From Escherichia coli (GTDB taxonomy: Bacteria; Pseudomonadota; Gammaproteobacteria; Enterobacterales; Enterobacteriaceae): a stretch of DNA of 64,000 nt. Positions 3,018 to 59,056 of this stretch are shown one piece after another; position 1 is the stretch's first letter, and every line of letters begins with the position of its first letter. The notes beneath the pieces were generated by a model that was given only the letters and a program-made list of their open reading frames with translations, was not told where the DNA came from and searched no databases. The stretch is from the NCBI RefSeq assembly GCF_030384885.1, contig NZ_CP128613.1; one strand, written 5' to 3'. The position numbers and the translations under genes were made by a program.

Positions 3018-5021
3018 TCAGGCACCTTTCACTCCCAGTACCTTATGCGCTTTTGCCACAATATTCTCGGCGGTAAAGCCAAAGAACGGGAACAGCTTAT
3101 CCGCAGGAGCAGATTCCCCATAACCCGTCATCCCGACAATTGCCCCTTTCAGACCAACATATTTGTACCAGTAATCGGCGATGCCTGCTTCCACCGCCAC
3201 GCGAGCCGCAACGTTAGAAGGCAACACCGACTCACGATATTCCTCATCCTGGGCGTCGAAAATATCGGTCGAGGGCAGGGAAACAACGCGTACATTGCGA
3301 CCTTCTCCCGCTAATTTCTCTGCCGCTTGCAGGGTGATTTCCATCTCTGAACCAGTGGCAATCAAAATAATATCCGGCTTGCCGCCGCTGTCTTTCAACA
3401 CATAACCACCGCGGGCAATCTCTTTTACCTGATCTGGCGTACGTTCCACCTGGGCCAGATTCTGCCTTGAGAGGATAAGCGCCGTCGGCCCGTTGTGACG
3501 CTCGACCGCCAGCTTCCAGCCCACCGCAGCTTCCACCTGATCACACGGTCGCCAGGTGCTAAAATTCGGCGTCAGGCGCAGACTGGCCAGTTGCTCAACG
3601 GCCTGGTGCGTCGGACCATCTTCCCCTAAGCCAATAGAGTCGTGGGTATAAACCATAATCTGCCGCGCTTTCATCAGTGCCGCCATCCGCGCGGCGTTAC
3701 GGGCGTATTCAACAAACATCAGGAACGTCGCGGTATACGGCACGAAGCCGCCGTGGTGCGCAATGCCATTGGCGATAGCGGTCATACCAAATTCACGCAC
3801 CCCGTAGTGAATATAGTTGCCCGCCGGATCTTCCTTCAGCGACACAGAACCTTTCCAGATGGTGAGGTTGCTGGGAGCCAGATCCGCCGAACCGCCGAGC
3901 AACTCAGGCAGCATGGGCCCGTAAGCGTTAAGCGTATTTTGCGAAGCCTTACGGGTCGCGATTTTCGCCGGATTCGCCTGCAACTCATTGATATATTTCT
4001 GCGTCGTTTTTTCCCAGTCTTTTGGTAAACCACCGCTCATCCGGCGAGTAAACTCTTCTGCCAGTTGCGGATGAGCCTTTTTATACGCGGCAAACTTCTC
4101 ATTCCAGCTCTGCTGTGCTTTTTCGCCTTTTTCGCGAGCGTCCCAGGCGTGATAAATCTCTTTGGGGATCTCAAATGGCGGATGATGCCAGCCCAGTTTC
4201 TGTCGAGCCAGCGCCACCTCTTCTTCACCCAGCGGTGCGCCGTGCGCCTCTTCTTTACCTGCTTTATTCGGTGAACCAAAGCCAATCACCGTACGGCAGA
4301 TAATCAGCGATGGCTTATCTTTTACGCTTTGCGCTTCAAGAATCGCTTCCTTCACCGCCTGCGGATCGTGACCGTCGATTTCATGGATCACATGCCAGTG
4401 ATAGGCTTCAAAACGTTTTGCCGTATCGTCGGTAAACCAGCCTTCGGTTTCACCGTCGATGGAAATACCATTGTGATCGTAAAAACCAATCAGCTTGCCC
4501 AGCCCCAGCGTGCCCGCCAGCGAACAGACTTCGTGAGAAATACCTTCCATCAGGCAGCCGTCACCCATAAACACATAGGTGAAGTGATCGACAATTTCAT
4601 GATCCGGCTGGTTAAACTGCGCCGCCAGTGTACGTTCTGCTATCGCCAGTCCGACCGCGTTCGCCAAACCTTGTCCAAGTGGACCGGTGGTGGTTTCAAC
4701 ACCAGGCGTATAGCCAATCTCCGGGTGACCAGGGGTTTTCGAATGCAACTGACGGAAGTTCTTCAGCTCTTCCAGCGGCAGGTCGTAACCGGTCAGATGA
4801 AGCAAACTGTAGAGCAGCATCGACGCGTGACCGTTGGAGAGAATAAAGCGGTCGCGATCATACCAGGTTGGATCGGTGGGGTTATGTTTAAGAAAATCGT
4901 TCCACAGCACTTCGGCAATATCAGCCATGCCCATCGGCGCGCCGGGATGACCAGAATTGGCTTTTTGTACCGCATCCATACTGAGCGCGCGAATCGCATT
5001 GGCAAGGTCTTTTCGGGACAT
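3018..5021 (-). CDS. tktB: Transketolase 2
   Basis: ORF 3018-5084 in track; start placed at [18 protein letters not shown] (ATG 5021); transketolase TPP-binding motifs; talA-tktB pairing. Confidence 0.9.
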
Positions 5022-16333: not shown

Positions 16334-16517
<184 letters not shown>

Positions 16518-16547
16518 ATAAATAACAACTAACAGGGAGTAAAGGCG

Positions 16548-36902: not shown

Positions 36903-37694
36903 ATGGGTAAACTCACGGGCAAGACAGCACTGATTACGGGCGCATTGCAGGGAATTGGCGAAGGAATTGCCAGAACTTTTGCGCGTCATGGCGCAAACCT
37001 AATCTTGCTGGATATCTCCCCTGAGATCGAAAAGCTGGCGGACGAACTGTGTGGTCGTGGTCATCGCTGTACGGCGGTTGTCGCCGATGTGCGTGACCCG
37101 ACGTCGGTAGCCGCAGCTATCAAGCGCGCAAAGGAAAAAGAAGGGCGCATTGATATCCTGGTGAATAACGCAGGCGTTTGTCGTCTGGGCAGTTTCCTCG
37201 ATATGAGCGATGAAGATCGCGATTTCCATATTGATATCAATATAAAAGGCGTATGGAACGTCACGAAGGCGGTGCTGCCGGAGATGATTGCCCGCAAAGA
37301 TGGTCGCATTGTGATGATGTCTTCGGTCACTGGCGATATGGTGGCCGATCCGGGCGAAACGGCGTATGCCTTAACGAAAGCGGCGATTGTTGGCCTGACT
37401 AAATCGCTGGCGGTGGAGTACGCGCAGTCTGGTATTCGCGTTAACGCAATCTGCCCTGGATACGTTCGCACGCCAATGGCTGAAAGCATTGCCCGCCAGT
37501 CGAATCCGGAAGATCCAGAATCGGTGCTGACTGAAATGGCGAAAGCAATCCCGCTGCGTCGCCTCGCCGATCCGCTGGAAGTCGGCGAACTGGCGGCCTT
37601 CCTCGCATCCGATGAATCCAGCTATTTAACCGGTACACAGAATGTGATTGATGGCGGCAGCACACTGCCGGAGACGGTTAGCGTCGGCATCTGA
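36903..37694 (+). CDS. ucpA: Short-chain dehydrogenase/reductase UcpA
   Basis: Start placed at MGKLTGKTALITG (ATG 36903), 263 aa; SDR TGxxxGxG motif. Confidence 0.85.
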   Translation: MGKLTGKTALITGALQGIGEGIARTFARHGANLILLDISPEIEKLADELCGRGHRCTAVVADVRDPTSVAAAIKRAKEKEGRIDILVNNAGVCRLGSFLDMSDEDRDFHIDINIKGVWNVTKAVLPEMIARKDGRIVMMSSVTGDMVADPGETAYALTKAAIVGLTKSLAVEYAQSGIRVNAICPGYVRTPMAESIARQSNPEDPESVLTEMAKAIPLRRLADPLEVGELAAFLASDESSYLTGTQNVIDGGSTLPETVSVGI

Positions 37695-37997
37695 TTCACC
37701 TCTGTTTCCTCCCTGCATGTGTGGGGAGGATTTCGTCTTGAACTAAGTTCACCAGGCTATTTTATTTGTCATTTTGGCCCCGGGCAGTGCTCGAAATCCT
37801 CACGTACTATGTGTACGCTCCGGTTTCTCCGCGCTGTTCGTGTCCAAACTGACTGCAACAATTACGCCTGTTGAACCAAGTTCTTATTCCCTTTTCAACT
37901 TCCAAATCACCAAACGGTATATAAAACCGTTACTCCTTTCACGTCCGTTATAAATATGATGACTAATAGAAAGTCATTTAATTAATAAGGGTGCGCA

Positions 37998-39014
37998 ATG
38001 GCCGTTAACTTACTGAAAAAGAACTCACTCGCGCTGGTCGCTTCTCTGCTGCTGGCGGGCCATGTACAGGCAACGGAACTGCTGAACAGTTCTTATGACG
38101 TCTCCCGCGAGCTCTTTGCCGCCCTGAATACCCCGTTTGAGCAACAATGGGCGAAAGATAACGGTGGCGACAAGCTAACGATTAAACAATCTCATGCCGG
38201 GTCATCAAAACAGGCGCTGGCGATTTTGCAGGGCTTAAAAGCAGACGTTGTCACTTATAACCAGGTGACCGACGTGCAGATCCTGCATGATAAAGGCAAG
38301 CTGATCCCGGCTGACTGGCAGTCGCGCCTGCCGAATAACAGCTCGCCGTTTTACTCCACCATGGGCTTCCTGGTGCGAAAGGGCAACCCGAAGAATATCC
38401 ATGACTGGAACGATCTGGTGCGCTCCGACGTGAAGCTGATTTTCCCGAACCCAAAAACCTCCGGTAACGCGCGTTATACCTATCTGGCGGCATGGGGTGC
38501 AGCGGATAAAGCCGACGGTGGCGACAAAGCCAAAACCGAACAGTTTATGACTCAGTTCCTGAAAAACGTGGAAGTGTTCGATACCGGCGGTCGTGGCGCG
38601 ACCACTACTTTTGCCGAGCGCGGGCTGGGCGATGTGCTGATTAGCTTCGAATCGGAAGTGAACAACATCCGCAAGCAGTATGAAGCGCAGGGCTTTGAAG
38701 TGGTGATTCCGAAAACCAACATTCTGGCGGAATTCCCGGTAGCGTGGGTCGATAAAAACGTGCAGGCCAACGGTACGGAAAAAGCGGCAAAAGCTTACCT
38801 GAACTGGCTCTACAGCCCACAGGCGCAAACGATCATTACCGATTATTACTACCGCGTGAATAACCCGGAAGTCATGGACAAACTGAAAGACAAATTCCCG
38901 CAGACCGAGCTGTTTCGCGTGGAAGATAAATTTGGCTCCTGGCCGGAAGTGATGAAAACCCACTTCAACAGCGGCGGCGAGTTAGACAAGCTGTTAGCGG
39001 CGGGGCGTAACTAA
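37998..39014 (+). CDS. cysP: Thiosulfate-binding periplasmic protein
   Basis: 338-aa ORF with signal peptide; first gene of cysPUWAM. Confidence 0.9.
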
Positions 39015-39847
39015 TGTTTGCAGTTTCTTCCAGACGCGTGCTGCCGGGCTTTACCTTAAGCCTCGGCACCAGTCTGCTGTTTGTGTGCCTGATTTTGCTG
39101 CTGCCGCTCTCCGCACTGGTGATGCAACTGGCTCAGATGAGCTGGGCGCAGTACTGGGAGGTGATCACCAACCCGCAGGTGGTCGCGGCCTATAAAGTGA
39201 CGCTGCTGTCGGCGTTTGTGGCATCGATTTTTAACGGCGTTTTCGGCCTGCTGATGGCGTGGATTTTAACCCGCTATCGCTTTCCGGGCCGCACGCTGCT
39301 TGATGCGCTGATGGATTTACCGTTTGCGCTACCAACGGCGGTAGCAGGTTTAACGCTGGCTTCGCTCTTTTCCGTGAACGGTTTTTACGGCGAGTGGCTG
39401 GCGAAGTTTGATATCAAAGTCACCTACACCTGGCTTGGTATCGCGGTGGCGATGGCCTTTACCAGCATTCCGTTTGTGGTGCGCACCGTGCAGCCGGTGC
39501 TGGAGGAGTTGGGCCCGGAATATGAAGAAGCGGCAGAAACGCTCGGCGCAACGCGCTGGCAGAGTTTCTGCAAAGTGGTGCTGCCGGAGCTTTCTCCGGC
39601 GCTGGTGGCGGGCGTGGCGCTGTCGTTTACCCGTAGTCTCGGTGAGTTTGGTGCGGTGATTTTTATCGCCGGGAACATCGCCTGGAAGACGGAAGTGACG
39701 TCGCTGATGATTTTTGTTCGCTTACAGGAGTTTGATTACCCGGCGGCGAGCGCAATTGCTTCGGTGATCCTCGCTGCATCCCTGCTGCTGCTGTTCTCAA
39801 TTAACACTCTGCAAAGTCGCTTTGGTCGGCGTGTGGTAGGTCATTAA
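39014..39847 (+). CDS. cysU: Sulfate/thiosulfate ABC transporter permease CysU (CysT)
   Basis: 277-aa polytopic ORF; operon position. Confidence 0.9.
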   Translation: MFAVSSRRVLPGFTLSLGTSLLFVCLILLLPLSALVMQLAQMSWAQYWEVITNPQVVAAYKVTLLSAFVASIFNGVFGLLMAWILTRYRFPGRTLLDALMDLPFALPTAVAGLTLASLFSVNGFYGEWLAKFDIKVTYTWLGIAVAMAFTSIPFVVRTVQPVLEELGPEYEEAAETLGATRWQSFCKVVLPELSPALVAGVALSFTRSLGEFGAVIFIAGNIAWKTEVTSLMIFVRLQEFDYPAASAIASVILAASLLLLFSINTLQSRFGRRVVGH

Positions 39848-40722
39848 TGGCGGAAGTGACACAGTTGAAGCGTTATGACGCGCGCCCGATTAACTGGGGC
39901 AAATGGTTTTTGATTGGCACCGGAATGCTGGTTTCGGCGTTCATCCTGCTGGTGCCGATGATTTACATTTTCGTGCAGGCATTCAGCAAAGGGCTGATGC
40001 CGGTTTTACAGAATCTGGCTGATCCGGACATGCTACATGCCATCTGGCTAACGGTGATGATTGCGCTGATTGCCCTCCCGGTAAACCTGGTGTTCGGGAT
40101 TCTGCTGGCCTGGCTGGTGACGCGCTTTAACTTCCCCGGACGCCAGTTGCTGCTGACGCTGCTGGACATTCCGTTTGCTGTGTCGCCGGTGGTTGCCGGT
40201 CTGGTCTATCTGCTTTTCTACGGCTCTAACGGCCCGCTCGGCGGCTGGCTGGATGAACATAATCTGCAAATTATGTTCTCCTGGCCGGGAATGGTGCTGG
40301 TCACCATCTTCGTGACCTGTCCGTTTGTGGTGCGCGAGCTGGTGCCAGTGATGTTAAGCCAGGGCAGCCAGGAAGACGAAGCGGCGATTTTGCTTGGCGC
40401 GTCTGGCTGGCAGATGTTCCGGCGCGTCACGCTGCCGAACATCCGCTGGGCGCTGCTTTATGGCGTGGTGCTGACCAACGCCCGCGCGATTGGCGAGTTT
40501 GGTGCGGTGTCGGTGGTTTCCGGCTCGATTCGCGGCGAAACACTTTCGCTGCCGTTACAGATTGAATTGCTGGAGCAGGACTACAACACCGTCGGCTCCT
40601 TTACCGCCGCGGCGCTGTTGACGCTGATGGCGATTATCACCCTGTTTTTAAAGAGTATGTTGCAGTGGCGCCTGGAGAATCAGGAAAAACGCGCGCAACA
40701 GGAGGAACATCATGAGCATTGA
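39847..40722 (+). CDS. cysW: Sulfate/thiosulfate ABC transporter permease CysW
   Basis: 291-aa polytopic ORF; operon position. Confidence 0.9.
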
Positions 40723-41809
40723 GATTGCCAATATTAAGAAGTCGTTTGGTCGCACCCAGGTGCTGAACGATATCTCACTGGATATTCCTTCTGGTCAGAT
40801 GGTCGCATTGCTGGGGCCGTCCGGTTCCGGGAAAACCACGCTGCTGCGGATTATCGCCGGGCTGGAGCATCAAACCAGCGGGCATATTCGTTTCCACGGC
40901 ACCGACGTCAGCCGCCTGCATGCACGCGATCGTAAAGTCGGTTTCGTGTTTCAGCATTACGCGCTGTTCCGCCATATGACGGTGTTCGACAATATCGCCT
41001 TTGGCCTGACGGTGCTGCCGCGTCGCGAGCGCCCGAATGCCGCGGCGATCAAAGCGAAAGTGACAAAATTACTGGAAATGGTGCAGCTTGCCCATCTGGC
41101 GGATCGTTATCCGGCGCAGCTTTCCGGCGGTCAGAAACAGCGTGTGGCGCTGGCGCGCGCGCTGGCTGTCGAACCGCAAATTCTGCTGCTTGATGAACCG
41201 TTTGGCGCGCTGGATGCGCAGGTGCGTAAAGAGCTGCGTCGCTGGCTGCGTCAACTTCATGAAGAGCTGAAATTCACCAGTGTGTTCGTGACCCATGACC
41301 AGGAAGAGGCGATGGAAGTCGCCAACCGCGTAGTGGTGATGAGCCAGGGCAATATCGAACAGGCTGATGAACCCGATCAGGTCTGGCGCGAACCGGCGAC
41401 CCGTTTTGTGCTGGAGTTTATGGGCGAAGTAAACCGCTTGCAGGGAACGATTCGCGGAGGGCAGTTCCACGTTGGCGCACATCGCTGGCCGCTGGGATAT
41501 ACCCCTGCGTACCAGGGGCCGGTGGATCTCTTCCTGCGCCCGTGGGAAGTGGATATCAGCCGCCGCACCAGCCTCGATTCGCCGCTGCCGGTACAGGTGC
41601 TGGAAGCCAGCCCGAAAGGCCACTACACCCAATTAGTCGTGCAGCCGCTGGGGTGGTATGAAGATCCGCTCACCGTGGTAATGCGTGGCGATGATGCGCC
41701 AGTGCGCGGCGATCGTTTGTTCGTCGGGCTGCAACATGCGCGGCTGTATAACGGCGACGAGCGTATTGAAACCCGCGATGAGGAACTTGCTCTCGCACAA
41801 AGCGCCTGA
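40712..41809 (+). CDS. cysA: Sulfate/thiosulfate ABC transporter ATP-binding protein
   Basis: 365-aa ORF; Walker [10 protein letters not shown] and ABC signature LSGGQKQR. Confidence 0.9.
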
Positions 41810-41830
41810 TAGGTTGAGTGAATGTTAAAC

Positions 41831-41863
41831 GCCCGGAGGCGCTTCCCGCGATCCGGGCTTTTT
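41831..41863 (+). terminator. Hairpin plus T-tract after cysA
   Basis: cccgga...tccggg stem followed by cttttt. Confidence 0.5.
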
Positions 41864-41882
41864 AATGGCAAGGTTTTGTAAC

Positions 41883-41925
41883 CTGTAGGCCTGATAAGAC
41901 GGTAAACGTCGCATCAGGCAACACC
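41883..41925. repeat. REP element between cysA and cysM
   Basis: gtaggcctgataagacg...cgcatcaggc REP-type palindrome. Confidence 0.6.
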
Positions 41926-41942
41926 ACGTATGGACAGAGATC

Positions 41943-42854
41943 GTGAGTACATTAGAACAAACAATAGGCAATACGCCTCTGGTGAAATTACAACGAATGG
42001 GGCCGGATAACGGCAGTGAAGTGTGGTTAAAGCTGGAAGGCAATAATCCAGCCGGTTCGGTGAAAGATCGTGCGGCGCTTTCGATGATCGTCGAGGCGGA
42101 AAAGCGCGGGGAAATTAAACCGGGTGATGTGTTAATCGAAGCCACCAGTGGTAACACCGGGATTGCGCTGGCAATGATTGCCGCGCTAAAAGGCTATCGC
42201 ATGAAATTGCTGATGCCCGATAACATGAGCCAGGAGCGTCGCGCGGCGATGCGTGCCTACGGTGCGGAGCTGATTCTGGTCACCAAAGAGCAGGGCATGG
42301 AAGGCGCGCGCGATCTGGCGCTGGAAATGGCAAATCGTGGGGAAGGCAAGCTGCTCGATCAGTTCAACAATCCCGATAATCCCTATGCACATTACACCAC
42401 CACCGGGCCGGAAATCTGGCAGCAAACCGGCGGTCGCATTACCCATTTTGTCTCCAGCATGGGGACGACCGGTACGATTACCGGTGTGTCGCGCTTTATG
42501 CGCGAGCAATCCAAATCGGTGACCATTGTCGGCCTGCAGCCGGAAGAGGGCAGCAGCATTCCCGGCATTCGTCGCTGGCCTGAGGAATATCTGCCAGGCA
42601 TCTTCAACGCTTCGCTGGTGGATGAGGTGCTGGATATTCATCAGCGCGATGCGGAAAACACCATGCGCGAACTGGCAGTGCGGGAAGGGATTTTCTGCGG
42701 TGTAAGTTCCGGCGGCGCGGTTGCCGGAGCACTGCGGGTGGCAAAAGCCAACCCCGGCGCTGTAGTGGTGGCGATCATCTGCGATCGCGGCGATCGCTAC
42801 CTTTCTACCGGGGTGTTTGGGGAAGAGCACTTTAGTCAGGGGGCGGGGATTTAA
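41943..42854 (+). CDS. cysM: Cysteine synthase B (O-acetylserine sulfhydrylase B)
   Basis: 303-aa ORF with GTG start; PLP-dependent sequence closely related to cysK. Confidence 0.9.
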   Translation: MSTLEQTIGNTPLVKLQRMGPDNGSEVWLKLEGNNPAGSVKDRAALSMIVEAEKRGEIKPGDVLIEATSGNTGIALAMIAALKGYRMKLLMPDNMSQERRAAMRAYGAELILVTKEQGMEGARDLALEMANRGEGKLLDQFNNPDNPYAHYTTTGPEIWQQTGGRITHFVSSMGTTGTITGVSRFMREQSKSVTIVGLQPEEGSSIPGIRRWPEEYLPGIFNASLVDEVLDIHQRDAENTMRELAVREGIFCGVSSGGAVAGALRVAKANPGAVVVAIICDRGDRYLSTGVFGEEHFSQGAGI

Positions 42855-42856
42855 GA

Positions 42857-43225
42857 TTATTGTGCAGGCACCGTTTTATCCGTCTGCGCAATTAAAGCAT
42901 GTAAAAAAGGTTGCGCGTTTTCATCGCTCTTACCGGGCATCTTCACGATATACGGCTTCCCGGTAATCGATGATGACGAAGCAACCTTATCAATAAATTG
43001 CTCAGCAGTATCAATACGATTACGGGTATTGCCCAGCTTCAGACGCAAATGGGAAACCGCTTCATCGCAGGTATGTTCATCGCCGTTGCGCACAAATATC
43101 AAATCCTTTTTCTGTGCTAATCCCTCCAGCATGGCGTTGATGCGGGCTTCTTCGTGGGCGGTTAACTTCGCGTAAGCGGGGAGTGTCATTAGCAGCGTAA
43201 TGACCAGACAAATGATTTTCTTCAT
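42857..43225 (-). CDS. yfeK: Exported protein YfeK
   Basis: 122-aa ORF with signal peptide [19 protein letters not shown]; divergent from pdxK. Confidence 0.75.
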
Positions 43226-43250
43226 TGAATTACCTTATCCTTGTTTTGTG

Positions 43251-43316
<66 letters not shown>

Positions 43317-43329
43317 GAGAAAAAATTAA

Positions 43330-44181
43330 ATGAGTAGTTTGTTGTTGTTTAACGATAAGAGCAGGGCATTGCAGGCGGATATCGTCGCCGTGCAGTCGCA
43401 GGTAGTGTACGGCAGCGTAGGCAACAGCATTGCCGTGCCTGCTATCAAACAGAACGGCCTGAATGTCTTTGCCGTGCCGACGGTATTGCTGAGCAATACG
43501 CCGCATTATGACACTTTCTACGGTGGTGCGATTCCGGACGAATGGTTTAGCGGTTATTTGCGTGCGCTTCAGGAGCGTGATGCGCTGCGCCAGCTGCGCG
43601 CTGTCACCACGGGCTATATGGGAACGGCATCGCAAATCAAAATCCTTGCCGAGTGGCTGACTGCGCTACGCAAAGACCATCCTGACTTATTGATTATGGT
43701 CGATCCGGTGATTGGCGATATTGATAGCGGAATTTATGTCAAACCTGACCTTCCTGAGGCATACCGACAATATTTACTGCCTCTGGCGCAGGGTATTACG
43801 CCTAATATCTTTGAGCTGGAAATCCTGACCGGTAAAGATTGCCGCGATCTCGACAGCGCCATTGCTGCCGCAAAAAGTCTGCTTTCAGACACATTAAAAT
43901 GGGTGGTGATTACCAGTGCCTCCGGTAACGAAGAAAATCAGGAGATGCAGGTGGTGGTGGTCAGTGCCGACAGCGTGAATGTCATTTCCCATTCTCGGGT
44001 AAAGACGGATCTTAAAGGAACAGGCGATCTGTTTTGCGCCCAGCTTATCAGTGGCTTGTTGAAAGGTAAGGAATTAACTGACGCGGTACATAGCGCGGGA
44101 TTACGCGTGCTGGAGGTGATGCGCTATACCCAGCAGCATGGTAGTGATGAATTGATTTTGCCGCCGCTGACTGAAGCATAA
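43330..44181 (+). CDS. pdxK: Pyridoxal/pyridoxine/pyridoxamine kinase
   Basis: 283-aa ORF; ribokinase-family sequence; synteny next to crr. Confidence 0.9.
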
Positions 44182-44210
44182 AAAAATGGCGCCGATGGGC
44201 GCCATTTTTC
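44181..44210. terminator. Bidirectional rho-independent terminator between pdxK and crr
   Basis: aaaaaaa-tggcgcc-gatg-ggcgcca-ttttt: perfect stem flanked by an A-tract and a T-tract. Confidence 0.8.
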
Positions 44211-44223
44211 ACTGCGGCAAGAA

Positions 44224-44733
44224 TTACTTCTTGATGCGGATAACCGGGGTTTCACCCACAGTCACGCTACCGGACAGTTTGATCAGTTCTTTGATTTCGT
44301 CCATGTTGGAGATAACAACCGGAGTCAGGGTAGACTTGGCTTTCTCTTCCAGCAGCGGCAGATCGAATTCAATCACGGTATCACCAACTTTCACGCGCTG
44401 ACCTTCTTCAGCAATACGCTTGAAGCCTTCGCCTTTCAGTTCAACGGTGTCGATACCGAAGTGGACGAACAGTTCAACGCCGCTATCAGATTCGATAGAG
44501 AACGCGTGGTTGGTCTCAAAGATTTTACCAATGGTGCCGTCTACAGGCGCGACCATTTTGTTACCAGTTGGTTTGATAGCAATACCATCACCAACGATTT
44601 TTTCCGCAAAAACGACATCCGGCACGTCTTCGATATTGACGATCTCGCCAGAGAGCGGAGCAATGATCTCAATAGTTCCGGTATCCTTCTTGTCGTCGGA
44701 AACCAGAGATTTCAGTTTATCGAACAAACCCAT
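44224..44733 (-). CDS. crr: PTS glucose-specific EIIA component
   Basis: 169-aa ORF; EIIA-Glc sequence. Confidence 0.95.
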
Positions 44734-44773
44734 GATCTTCTCCTAAGCAGTAAATTGGGCCGCATCTCGTGGA

Positions 44774-46501
44774 TTAGCAGATTGTTTTTTCTTCAATGAA
44801 CTTGTTAACCAGCGTCATTAACTCGTCCGTTGTCGGTTGAGCAAGAGCCTGCTCTGCTAACACCTTCGCATCTTCGAAGTTCGTGTTACGGATAATCTTC
44901 TTAATGCGCGGGATAGAAATGGCGCTCATAGAGAATTCGTCCAGACCCATCCCCAGCAACAGAAGTGTAGCACGTTCATCGCCAGCAAGCTCACCACACA
45001 TGCCAGTCCATTTGCCTTCAGCATGAGAAGCATCAATAACTTGCTTGATCAAGTTCAGCACGGACGGTGACATTGGCTGGTAAAGGTGTGAAATCATATC
45101 ATTACCACGGTCAACTGCCAGAGTGTACTGCGTTAAATCATTGGTGCCGATACTAAAGAAATCAACTTCTTTGGCTAAATGACGTGCAATTGTTGCGGCA
45201 GCCGGTGTTTCCACCATTACGCCGATTTCAATTGACTCGTCAAACGCTTTACCTTCGTCGCGCAGTTCCTGTTTGTAGATTTCGATCTCTTTGCGCAGTG
45301 CACGCACTTCTTCAACAGAGATGATCATCGGGAACATGATGCGCAATTTACCGAAAGCAGAGGCACGCAGGATAGCGCGGAGCTGATCGCGCAGGATCTC
45401 TTTACGATCCATCGCGATACGGATAGCGCGCCAGCCGAGGAACGGGTTCTCTTCTTTCGGGAAGTTCATGTATGGCAGCTCTTTGTCGCCGCCGATGTCC
45501 ATGGTACGAACGATAACCGCTTGTGAGCCACACGCTTCAGCTACTGCTTTGTAAGCAGCAAACTGTTCTTCTTCAGTGGGCAGCGCGTCGCGGTCCATGA
45601 ACAGGAACTCAGTACGATAAAGACCAACGCCTTCAGCGCCGTTACGCTCAGCACCTTCAACGTCACGAACCGTACCGATGTTAGCGCACACTTCTACCTG
45701 GTGACCGTCCAGCGTAATAGCTGGCAGATCTTTCAGTTTAGCAAGCTCTGCTTTTTCAGAAGCCACTTGCTCCTGAACAGCGCGCATTTTATCAATAACT
45801 TCGTTGGTTGGATTGACGTAAACCTGATTATTTACGGCATCCAGAATCAGATAGTCGTCATTTTTCACCTGAGAGGTGACGCTACCGGTACCCACGATAG
45901 CAGGCAGTTCCAGAGAACGCGCCATGATAGAGGTGTGGGAAGTACGGCCACCCGCGTCGGTGATGAAACCCAGCACCTTCTTCAGGTTCAGCTGTGCGGT
46001 TTCGGACGGCGTCAGATCAGCGGCAACCAGAATGACTTCATCCTGAATGGCGCTCAGGTCGATAATCTTCAGGCCCAGGATGTTGCGCAGCAGGCGCTTA
46101 CCGATATCACGTACGTCAGCCGCACGTTCTTTCAGGTATTCATCATCCAGCTCTTCCAGGGCAGAAGCCTGACCTTCGATAACTTCATGAGCAGCTGCGT
46201 CAGCTGTCATGTGCTTATCTTTAATCAGGGCTATGATTTCCTGCTCCAGCTCCTCATCTTCGAGTAGCATAATATGCCCTTCAAAGATGGCTTCTTTTTC
46301 TTCACCGAACGTTTCACCAGCTTTCGTTTTGATCGTTTCCAGCTGGGCTGATGCCTTGGCACGACCGCTCAGAAAACGTTCAACTTCCTGATCAACCTGG
46401 TCGGCAGAAATTTTTTTCCGGTCAATGACAATTTCGTCTTCTTTCAGAAGCAGAGCTTTACCGAAAGCGATACCCGGGGATGCTAAAATGCCTGAAATCA
46501 T
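44774..46501 (-). CDS. ptsI: PTS enzyme I
   Basis: 575-aa ORF; PEP-utilising enzyme. Confidence 0.95.
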
Positions 46502-46545
46502 AACCCTACCTTACTTGTGACTGATTTTTAAAAGAACCCGGGAAA

Positions 46546-46803
46546 TTACTCGAGTTCCGCCATCAGTTTAACCAGATGTTCAACCGCTTTCTGTTCGTCT
46601 TCGCCTTCTGCGGAGATAGTCACAACGGTACCTTGAGTCAGGCCCAGAGTCTGCAGTTTAAACAGGCTTTTCGCGCTGGCGCTTTTGCCGTTGGAAGTCA
46701 CAGTAATTTCAGAAGTGAAGCCCTTAGCTTCTTTTACAAACTGGGCAGCAGGGCGGGTGTGCAGACCGTTCGGAGCGGTAATGGTAACTTCTTGCTGGAA
46801 CAT
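46546..46803 (-). CDS. ptsH: PTS phosphocarrier protein HPr
   Basis: 85-aa [26 protein letters not shown] with active-site His15. Confidence 0.95.
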
Positions 46804-47136
46804 TGTATTTCCCCAACTTATAGGTTTAGTGTTGTGGAACTAAAGTCTAGCCTGGCGGTTCGACTTTAGCCTGTATTGTTAGCGCCAGTTTTTAACAGAC
46901 GCGACGCACGAAGAGCGCAATACAGTCCTTTGCTGGCGGGTGTTGACCGCTGACGTTTCGTACGTCATTAAACATTATGCCGCTAAAGGAAGAATTGAAC
47001 CAAATCATAAAATCGATTCAGCTATGGCTTTTCCTGTAACGATTAATTTCGCGCATCAAAATAATTAGTCTGGTTAAATACCAGTTCCGACAGGCTGAAT
47101 CAATGCCAGGAGGGGCGAAAGTTTGAAGCAGGCCAC
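46804..47136 (-). promoter_or_regulatory. ptsHI-crr upstream control region
   Basis: Intergenic region upstream of ptsH on its strand; individual promoters and sites not resolved. Confidence 0.35.
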
Positions 47137-47164
47137 AAAAAAGCACCTGAAAAGGTGCTTTTTT
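47137..47164 (-). terminator. Rho-independent terminator downstream of cysK
   Basis: aaaaaa-gcacc-tgaaaa-ggtgc-tttttt symmetric hairpin. Confidence 0.75.
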
Positions 47165-47186
47165 ACGCATTTTTAACAAGCTGGCA

Positions 47187-48158
47187 TTACTGTTGCAATT
47201 CTTTCTCAGTGAAGAGATCGGCAAACAATGCGGTGCTTAAATAACGCTCACCCGATGACGGTAGAATAACCACAATATTCTTGTTGGTAAAGCTTTCATC
47301 TTCTTGTAGTTTCAACGCTGCAGCAACAGCCGCTCCAGAAGAGATACCTGCAAGAATACCTTCCTCTTCCATCAGACGACGCGCGGTAGAAATAGCTTCT
47401 TCATTGGTGATGCCAATGACTTTATCGACCAGTTTGAGATCAAGGTTAGCCGGGATAAAACCAGCGCCAATCCCCTGAATTTTATGCGGGCCAGGTTTAA
47501 TCTCTTCACCTGCCAGCGCCTGGGCGATAACCGGAGAATCGGTTGGCTCCACGGCGACAGAGATGAGATCAGTCTTGCCTTTGGTGCCTTTAATGTAGCG
47601 GCTGACGCCGGTCAGCGTACCGCCAGTCCCAACACCAGCAATAAATACATCAACCTGACCGTCGGTATCTTCCCAGATCTCCGGACCGGTGGTTTTTTCG
47701 TGAATTTCAGGGTTTGCCGGATTGCTGAATTGTTGCAGCAGTAGGTATTTCTCTGGATTGCTGGCGACAATTTCTTCTGCTTTTTGGATTGCGCCTTTCA
47801 TGCCTTTAGCACCTTCGGTCAGCACCAGGTTTGCACCTAACGCTTTCAGCAGCTTGCGGCGTTCAATACTCATGGTTTCTGGCATGGTCAGGGTGAGTTT
47901 GTAACCGCGAGCGGCAGCCACATAGGCCAGTGCAATCCCGGTATTACCGCTGGTTGGTTCAACCAGTTCAACGCCTGGTTTCAGCACGCCGCGCTTTTCG
48001 GCATCCCAAATCATGTTGGCACCGATACGGCACTTAACGCTGAAGCTGGGGTTACGGGATTCCACCTTCGCCAGAATGCGTCCGTTACCGATGCGATTCA
48101 GGCGAACCAGCGGCGTGTGACCGATAGTCAGCGAGTTATCTTCAAAAATCTTACTCAT
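47187..48158 (-). CDS. cysK: Cysteine synthase A (O-acetylserine sulfhydrylase A)
   Basis: 323-aa ORF; PLP-dependent sequence. Confidence 0.95.
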
Positions 48159-48342
48159 GGCCTGTCCTTAACTGTATGAAATTGGGATACAACAGGTAGC
48201 ATACCCGCTCAGAGAATATGCGGAAGTAAGGATTTAGCATATCTATATGCAGAAGGGAAATAATGACATGCAAGATGGAATAAGGGGTGGCATAAGCCAC
48301 CCCTGTTTCACACAAACGGTTTACAAAATAACCGGTAGATTG

Positions 48343-49104
48343 TTACCGCCACATCGCGTGTTTATCGCGATAGCAATCGACCCACATCGCCGTCGCGCCA
48401 CAAACGGCAACGGGCATAATGAACAGATTAAGCAGCGGGATCATCGTAAACAGGCTGGTTAAAGCACCAAACTGCATATTGGTGATTTTGCGTGTGCGCA
48501 GGGCGGTGCGCATCTCTTTAAACGGCACTTTGTGGTTATCGAAGGGGTAATCGCAATACTGGATGGCTAACATCCAGGCGCTAAACAGGAACCACAGTAC
48601 CGGTGCGACGGTTTGCCCAATGCCAGGGATGAAGTAAAGAATTAGCAATACAATTGCGCGCGGCAGATACCAGGCAAATTTTTGCCATTCGCGTTTCATG
48701 ATTCGCGGCACATCTTTCATGATACCGAAAATTCCGGTATCTGGCGGTGTAGCGCCAGTCAGTCTTGCTTCCAGTTGTTCAGCCAATAAACCGTTGAACG
48801 GAGCAGCAATCCAGTTAGCAATCGTTGAGAAGAAATAGCCAAACACTAACAGCACAGAGATGACAGCCAGGGGCCACAACAGATAGCTCAGCCATTGTAA
48901 CCAGTCCGGAACATAACTCATGAGAGTCGGGATCCAGACATCGAGTTGCGTAAAGAGCCACCAGAATGCGCCCCCCATCAACAAAATATTGACCAGCAGC
49001 GGTAAAATAACGAAACGCCGAATCCCAGGTTGCGAGACGAGCTTCCAGCCTTGCGCAAAATAGTAAAAACCGCTGCGTGGGGCAGATGTGAATGATGAAA
49101 CCAT
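48343..49104 (-). CDS. cysZ: Sulfate transporter CysZ
   Basis: 253-aa polytopic ORF; synteny. Confidence 0.85.
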
Positions 49105-49333
49105 AATCAGGATGAGCTCCTTTTGACCAATCCCAGGAAAATTCTGCGTATTTTACCGGGTAATTGCGCAATGGACAGTTAGGATATGTTCGAAAAAACA
49201 GCAAAAAGCACGATTTCATCTATCTTTGTGCTGTGAAAGTTAATAGTGCACTTGCACTTGAGGTAATCGGCAAATACTCTTAGTGAGTAAATGTTTGCCG
49301 TGGTGGCAAGGTGTTAGAACAACAGAGAATATA

Positions 49334-50332
49334 ATGATGCAGGATTTGCGTCTGATATTAATCATTGTTGGCGCGATCGCCATAATCGCTTTACTGGTAC
49401 ATGGTTTCTGGACCAGCCGTAAAGAACGATCTTCTATGTTCCGCGATCGGCCATTAAAACGAATGAAGTCAAAACGTGACGACGATTCTTATGACGAGGA
49501 TGTCGAAGATGATGAGGGCGTTGGTGAGGTTCGTGTTCACCGCGTGAATCATGCCCCGGCTAACGCCCAGGAGCATGAGGCTGCTCGTCCGTCGCCGCAA
49601 CACCAGTACCAACCGCCTTATGCGTCTGCGCAGCCGCGTCAACCGGTCCAGCAGCCGCCTGAAGCGCAGGTACCGCCGCAACATGCTCCGCGTCCAACGC
49701 AGCCGGTGCAGCAACCCGTGCAGCAGCCTGCCTATCAGCCTCAGCCTGAACAGCCGTTGCAGCAGCCAGTTTCGCCACAGGTCGCGTCAGCGCCGCAGCC
49801 AGTGCATTCAGCGCCGCAACCGGCACAACAGGCTTTCCAGCCTGCAGAACCCGTAGCGGCACCACAGCCTGAGCCTGTCGCGGAACCGACTCCAGTTGTG
49901 GATAAGCCGAAGCGCAAAGAAGCAGTGATCATCATGAACGTCGCGGCGCATCACGGTAGCGAGCTAAACGGTGAACTGCTTCTTAACAGCATTCAACAAG
50001 CGGGCTTCATTTTTGGCGATATGAATATTTACCATCGTCATCTTAGCCCGGATGGCAGCGGCCCGGCGTTATTCAGCCTGGCGAATATGGTGAAACCGGG
50101 AACCTTCGATCCTGAAATGAAGGATTTCACTACTCCGGGTGTCACTATCTTTATGCAGGTACCGTCTTACGGTGACGAGCTGCAGAACTTTAAGCTGATG
50201 CTGCAATCTGCGCAGCATATTGCCGATGAAGTGGGCGGTGTAGTGCTTGACGATCAGCGCCGTATGATGACTCCGCAGAAATTGCGCGAGTACCAGGACA
50301 TCATCCGCGAAGTCAAAGACGCCAACGCCTGA
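49334..50332 (+). CDS. zipA: Cell-division protein ZipA
   Basis: Start placed at [17 protein letters not shown] (ATG 49334); N-terminal TM anchor, long P/Q-rich linker, C-terminal FtsZ-binding domain. Confidence 0.9.
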
Positions 50333-58987: not shown

Positions 58988-59056
58988 ATGAGAGGCACGG
59001 GAACTGCCGGACATAGTTGGTCTGATAAGCGAAGCGCATCAGGCAATTTCGCAAAT

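Follow-up and report, generated by a model that had tools for sequence, protein, structure and literature searches.

The convergent genes cysM and yfeK of Escherichia coli K-12 are separated by a third gene, yfeS, that has no counterpart at the same place in the 64,000-nucleotide stretch of E. coli DNA analyzed here (the window), and the locus raises the question of whether yfeS has been lost from this genome or has been gained by K-12. In the window, cysM (cysteine synthase B; 41943..42854, + strand, from the list of open reading frames) encodes 303 amino acids and ends in a TAA stop at 42852-42854. The neighboring yfeK (DUF5329 family, predicted exported protein; 42857..43225, − strand) encodes 122 amino acids with the C-terminus ...TVPAQ* and stops at 42857-42859 (TTA on the + strand, TAA on the − strand). 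The strictly intergenic DNA is thus reduced to the dinucleotide GA at 42855-42856, and positions 42845-42865 read ...GGGGATT-TAA-GA-TTA-TTGTGC..., in agreement with the first-pass annotation of the window, which had placed the two stops 2 bp apart. Both gene assignments are secure: CysM is a full-length family match to TIGR01138 (residues 3-292 of 303; 563 bits, with a cutoff of 394), and YfeK matches NF007646 (residues 1-122 of 122; 280 bits, with a cutoff of 171) as well as Pfam PF17263, DUF5329 (109 bits). The right-hand conserved neighbor of the locus is pdxK (pyridoxine/pyridoxal/pyridoxamine kinase; 43330..44181, + strand; NF006034, 528 bits), which diverges from yfeK.

The intervals 41943..42854 and 43330..44181 are annotated as cysM and pdxK, respectively, in the near-identical genome of E. 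coli 2013C-4282 (NZ_CP027579.1), where cysM and yfeK likewise lie side by side with nothing between them. This genome differs from the window by two SNPs in 7,101 nt. The first, at 42896 (A in the window; C in 2013C-4282, N96, MFDS1022581, and K-12), is a synonymous change of an Ala codon in yfeK, and the second, at 40075, is C in the window and G in 2013C-4282.

The first-pass annotation of the window had proposed that K-12 encodes yfeS between yfeK and cysM and had reasoned that, if so, this genome lacks it. The MG1655 annotation confirms the proposal, with yfeK (b2419) at 2537342-2537716, yfeS (b2420) at 2537749-2538483, and cysM (b2421) at 2538672-2539583 on the opposite strand, and comparison of the interval with K-12 shows that the close juxtaposition of cysM and yfeK is not shared by that strain. 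Breakpoints were mapped by anchoring the window against a K-12-type genome. The distance from the cysM stop to the point where yfeK homology resumes is 968 bp in K-12 versus 9 bp in the window, so that 959 bp of K-12 are missing here; the putative empty insertion point is the 9-bp sequence GATTATTGT at 42855..42863, with the K-12 yfeK homology resuming as GCAGGCACCG at 42864. A tblastn search with K-12 YfeS as the query detected no YfeS coding sequence across the 64-kb window (best E-value 1.6), and no open reading frame with a WGR domain (PF05406) is present at the cysM/yfeK junction or elsewhere in the window.

In the orientation of the window, the additional K-12 DNA comprises a 188-bp stretch with GGATTAAT at its start and a BIME made up of two REP-type palindromes (inverted repeats I1 and I2), followed by yfeS itself (735 bp, antisense) and by a 32-bp spacer that carries the ribosome-binding site AGGAGG. 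A second copy of GGATTAAT comes after the spacer and overlaps the new yfeK stop; the two copies form perfect 8-bp direct repeats on either side of the cassette, 952 bp apart from start to start. Because the second GGATTAAT supplies this stop, the C-terminus of YfeK is altered in yfeS-bearing genomes, where the protein has 124 amino acids and ends in ...TVPAEGN*, compared with 122 amino acids and ...TVPAQ* in the window. We found neither terminal inverted repeats nor a recombinase gene in the K-12 cassette, in which the internal inverted repeats are the REP/BIME palindromes, and the empty site differs from a simple one-copy version of the GGATTAAT repeat. Apart from its REP portions, the cassette has no match elsewhere in the window. 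REP-type sequences at 16382-16525 and 59016-59052 show 84-92% identity over 36-44 nt to the cassette REP/BIME and are ordinary dispersed REP elements. In its other features the K-12 locus resembles the window, with the same convergent flanking genes, the same pdxK/crr/ptsI and cysA/W/U/P neighbors, and an identical sigma-E-like yfeK promoter; it differs in the 959 bp of REP/BIME, yfeS, and spacer DNA and in the longer YfeK, and the region as a whole is ~93% identical.

To place the two arrangements within the species, a 200-nt query centered on the junction was compared with 5,426 complete E. coli genomes. Nothing interrupts the junction in 4,038 of them (74.4%), which rules out a chance coincidence or an assembly artefact as the source of the juxtaposition, and K-12 yfeS DNA is present in 1,387 (25.6%). 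The two counts add up to 5,425, which is every genome with the locus, and the cysM/yfeK junction is a clean two-state presence/absence polymorphism. Genomes without yfeS include the type strain ATCC 11775, UTI89, Nissle 1917, and O157:H7 strains; those with it include the K-12 derivatives and BL21. Divergence from the window over the 200 nt is 5-8% in most yfeS-less genomes, but their junction architecture is the same. The difference between K-12 and the window is therefore an accessory-gene polymorphism and not a peculiarity of this genome, and the yfeS-less junction is ordinary, being already annotated in thousands of public genomes. The “absence” proposed in the first-pass annotation stands in the sense that yfeS is lacking, but the word suggests a loss and needs a change of emphasis, the yfeS-less state being that of the E. 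coli majority and occurring in outgroup species and genera as well.

The direct repeats offer a route by which the cassette might be deleted. Illegitimate recombination or replication slippage between the two copies of GGATTAAT would excise yfeS de novo, leaving the scar TTTAAGGATTAATTTCCTTCCGCAGG with a single GGATTAAT, a YfeK tail of AEGN*, and stops 3 bp apart. In the window, the corresponding sequence is TTTAAGATTATTGTGCAGG, with a YfeK ending in AQ* and stops 2 bp apart; the junction reads TAAGATTATTGTGCAGG and is of the same type as in other E. coli and in Pseudocitrobacter faecalis. Comparison of a synthetic 208-nt scar with the 5,426 genomes did not yield any full-length match with an identity higher than 96.6%. 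The best hits cover 201-202 nt, which corresponds to the ancestral-type junction, and the predicted scar was not seen among them. Given the junction sequence and the scar search, repeat-mediated deletion can be regarded as effectively refuted, and we consider it extremely improbable. Since the junction differs from the predicted scar, the window allele is best read as the ancestral empty type and not as a fresh deletion.

For the outgroups, species-representative genomes were scanned with YfeK, four genes were mapped by tblastn, and the junctions were read. The window combines an uninterrupted cysM-yfeK junction with a YfeK ending in ...PAQ* and stops arranged as TAA-NN-TTA. This last architecture is common to the window, E. 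coli N96, the GTDB representative L004 (labeled ‘E. coli’), and P. faecalis: the junction is empty in L004 (TAA TC TTA, 2 bp) and in P. faecalis (TAA AC TTA, 2 bp), where YfeK also ends in PAQ*. In Enterobacteriaceae UBA5654 the two stops are 1 bp apart, and short spacers of ~30-80 bp separate the genes in Citrobacter amalonaticus, Superficieibacter sp., and Entomohabitans, those of the first two being ~30 bp long. The convergent open reading frames of Escherichia sp. E1V33 (L005 1410-1430) overlap by ~10 nt, with the TGA stop of cysM inside the last yfeK codons (...TVPSNP*). Because a tight junction recurs across other Escherichia species, P. faecalis, and other genera, the empty architecture is probably ancestral and K-12 would be the derived, insertion-bearing genome. 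The reading that we favor, at a probability of roughly 85% for the explanation as a whole, is that the window carries an unoccupied, ancestral-type cysM/yfeK allele, and that K-12 together with about a quarter of E. coli carries a 959-bp horizontally acquired cassette at the same point.

A copy of yfeS on a contig of a Pseudocitrobacter MAG sits exactly where it does in E. coli, with matching boundaries and likewise with a YfeK ending in AEGN*. This shared placement would also be expected if yfeS were ancestral to E. coli or to the Enterobacteriaceae and had been lost repeatedly, with the window as one of many losers, and the existence of two yfeS allele classes in E. coli (1,223 genomes at ≥99% identity and 165 at 95-99%) points in the same direction. 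The divergence of the cassette argues otherwise. Between K-12 and the Pseudocitrobacter MAG, yfeS is 95.9% identical in nucleotide sequence (92% at third codon positions), whereas the flanking genes are 89.6% (cysM; 73% at third positions) and 80.5% identical (yfeK; 59%). A cassette so much less diverged than its flanks indicates horizontal transfer and appears to be much younger than its surroundings. Full-length relatives of YfeS in the protein database consist of an Escherichia cluster at ≥89% identity, followed directly by proteins at ≤65%, of which those with a named source are from Paenibacillus, Lysinibacillus, Clostridium, and Dysgonomonas, with Fusobacterium represented in a plasmid collection; the protein database search returned no homologs of intermediate identity in other Enterobacteriaceae. 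The GC content of yfeS is 39.2%, against 56.5% for cysM, 52.2% for pdxK, and 52.0% for the window. This taxonomic distribution and the low GC fit a foreign origin of yfeS, and both count against an ancestral gene, as do the structural conservation of the empty junction across genera and the failure of the scar search to recover deletion scars. We consequently regard repeated loss of an ancestral yfeS as improbable, and the extra 959 bp of K-12 look like a horizontally acquired cassette. The 2.9% difference in yfeS between K-12 and E. coli MFDS1022581 shows that the species acquired the cassette some time ago and not recently. A separate, unannotated YfeS paralog with 70% amino-acid identity over 96% of the protein is encoded at 3366-4067 of the 50-kb E. 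coli plasmid NZ_CP098226.1, which, judged by its accession number, probably comes from strain Z0117EC0005, a strain that shares the haplotype of the window.

That haplotype bears on how this particular strain came by its allele. Positions 30000-50000 of the window match 2013C-4282 at 100.0% identity, and their identity to 5,423 other genomes is 95-99%. A 1.1-kb query from the locus is only ~93% identical to nearly all E. coli, and we considered whether the window might derive from a non-coli Escherichia or a cryptic clade; this was rejected on the basis of the 95-100.0% identity over 20 kb. The low local identity instead reflects a divergent haplotype of ~12 kb. From ~32000 to 44500 (murP/pbp4b via the cys operon to pdxK) the window is 92-96% identical to K-12, against 97-100% for the neighboring crr-ptsI-ptsH-cysK region. 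The divergent murP-pdxK haplotype is shared at 98-99% identity with only ~17 of the 5,426 E. coli genomes, and the block may represent an old imported or deeply diverged allele block. At 32093, in the yfeX/pbp4b intergenic region, K-12 has 182 bp more than the window, probably a REP/BIME-type intergenic insertion.

Both states of the junction occur within this haplotype family, as MFDS1022581 carries yfeS (a 975-bp insert) and N96 does not. By match length, ~12 of the 17 haplotype-sharing genomes appear to be yfeS-bearing, with MFDS1022581 as the one confirmed by annotation. MFDS1022581 is 97.1% identical to K-12 in yfeS and ~94% identical in the flanks; relative to the window, its flanks show 0 differences in 200 nt of cysM and 2 in 200 nt of yfeK. 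In N96 (L027 12760-12800), six clustered SNPs relative to the window and MFDS1022581, several of them K-12-like, fall in the last ~100 nt of cysM, a pattern at this 3′ end that resembles a short mosaic left by recombination and terminating close to the junction.

These observations leave room for a second route to the same allele, in which a recent ancestor of the strain carried yfeS and the empty junction was then brought in on a short tract by homologous recombination with an E. coli donor lacking yfeS. Such a secondary loss agrees with our main explanation on the identity of the allele and differs only on the path by which the strain reached it. It draws on the ~976 bp of additional length seen here in the majority of the genomes nearest to the window over 20 kb (98.1-98.6% identity), on the match between the flanks of the window and those of the confirmed yfeS carrier MFDS1022581, and on the mosaic patch of N96, which implies that recombination occurs at the junction. 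On the other hand, donor SNPs are not visible in the window flanks relative to MFDS1022581, at least four other genomes of the haplotype family (H66, H74, H76, and H78) are empty as well, and the reverse event, in which the MFDS1022581 sublineage acquired the cassette from a donor of the same haplotype, fits equally well. The immediate ancestor of the window strain may thus have had yfeS and exchanged it for the empty allele, a history that we hold to be possible but doubtful. The resulting ancestral-type allele is the same whether yfeS was exchanged in the line of this strain or was never present in it.

The contents of the cassette offer few clues to its role. K-12 YfeS matches the WGR domain (PF05406) at residues 9-71 only (65 bits), and in a PDB sequence search 2ra8 matches just this WGR N-terminal part. 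PADLOC returned no family at E ≤ 0.01 for YfeS, for YfeK, or for two E. albertii proteins encoded at the same junction (see below), and a search of a phage collection gave no functional lead for YfeS. Previous work has described yfeK and yfeS as an operon under the sigma-24 promoter yfeKp, and has reported that loss of yfeS in the Keio mutant reduces the MIC of boric acid from 100 mM to 45-50 mM, an effect that complementation reverses only in part (PMC11502571). In the window, a pattern match identifies a sigma-E-type promoter-like site (GAAACTT, 16 nt, TCAAA; 43259..43286, − strand) in the yfeK-pdxK intergenic region, 33 nt before the yfeK start codon. The 28-nt site is identical in K-12, MFDS1022581, and N96, E. 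albertii and Escherichia sp. E1V33 have a version that differs by one base in the spacer, and a sigma-E promoter probably drives yfeK in the window strain also.

How the two converging transcripts end is a small question raised by genes that lie 2 bp apart with no recognizable terminators. A scan of 42300-43400 detected no sigma-70 promoter-like or intrinsic-terminator-like sites, and no hairpin followed by a U-tract emerged when the 100 nt after each stop were folded as RNA (z = -1.17 and -2.70). These scans and folds lend no support to intrinsic termination at the junction. The cysM and yfeK transcripts presumably run into each other's antisense, where termination would be Rho-dependent or non-canonical in some other way. 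The BIME of K-12 is located between the two converging transcription units.

Taken together, these results suggest a simple model of the locus. The convergent core genes cysM and yfeK would originally have abutted with 2 bp between their stops, and in the K-12 lineage a cassette would have been inserted exactly there, consisting, from cysM to yfeK, of GGATTAAT, the REP/BIME, the AT-rich WGR-domain gene yfeS, the 32-bp spacer, and the second GGATTAAT. Insertion would place yfeS behind yfeK and thereby under transcription from the sigma-E promoter of yfeK, and homologous recombination within the conserved flanks would since have moved the occupied and empty alleles from strain to strain. A bolder version, which we think unlikely, holds that the junction is a recurrent and possibly sequence-specific integration point of the Enterobacteriaceae, that the yfeS cassette with its GGATTAAT repeats and REP/BIME moves between Escherichia and Pseudocitrobacter by an undescribed mechanism, and that the two alleles form an old balanced polymorphism in which yfeS has been captured, by way of the yfeK promoter, into the sigma-E envelope-stress regulon.

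The importance of the locus for biology at large is slight, and its lesson is mainly one of reference choice. K-12 is not the reference state at every E. coli locus, and a gene that seems to be missing by comparison with it can be an acquisition of the K-12 lineage; annotation and scanning pipelines should accordingly compare a genome with the species pangenome before flagging an absence. For yfeS itself, the picture is that of an accessory, low-GC gene wired into a sigma-E operon that ~74% of E. coli naturally do without.

Other lineages carry other DNA between the same two genes. In E. albertii NBRC 107761 (L006 3376-5194), the junction holds a different insert of 1.8 kb with 34.5% GC, which contains two open reading frames of 280 and 175 amino acids co-oriented with cysM and gives YfeK the tail ...TVELKNK*. 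Searches of Pfam and PADLOC with these two proteins produced no significant match, the sole hit being a weak one to DKNYY (E = 0.003). A third kind of cargo, a 140-amino-acid SnoaL-like/DUF4440 open reading frame, lies between yfeK and cysM in Superficieibacter electus (L013 3473-3895). Judged from these arrangements, the junction appears to be a place where small cargo has landed repeatedly.

Bacterial chromosomes contain integration ‘hot spots’ for accessory genes between conserved core genes. The cysM/yfeK junction is unlike these in that its cargo is tiny (one or two genes), no integrase, tRNA, or mobile-element genes accompany it, and the cargo has no PADLOC match. It is like them in that a single point between two core genes has received differing AT-rich cargo by lineage: yfeS in E. 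coli, the two-ORF insert in E. albertii, and the SnoaL-like gene in S. electus.
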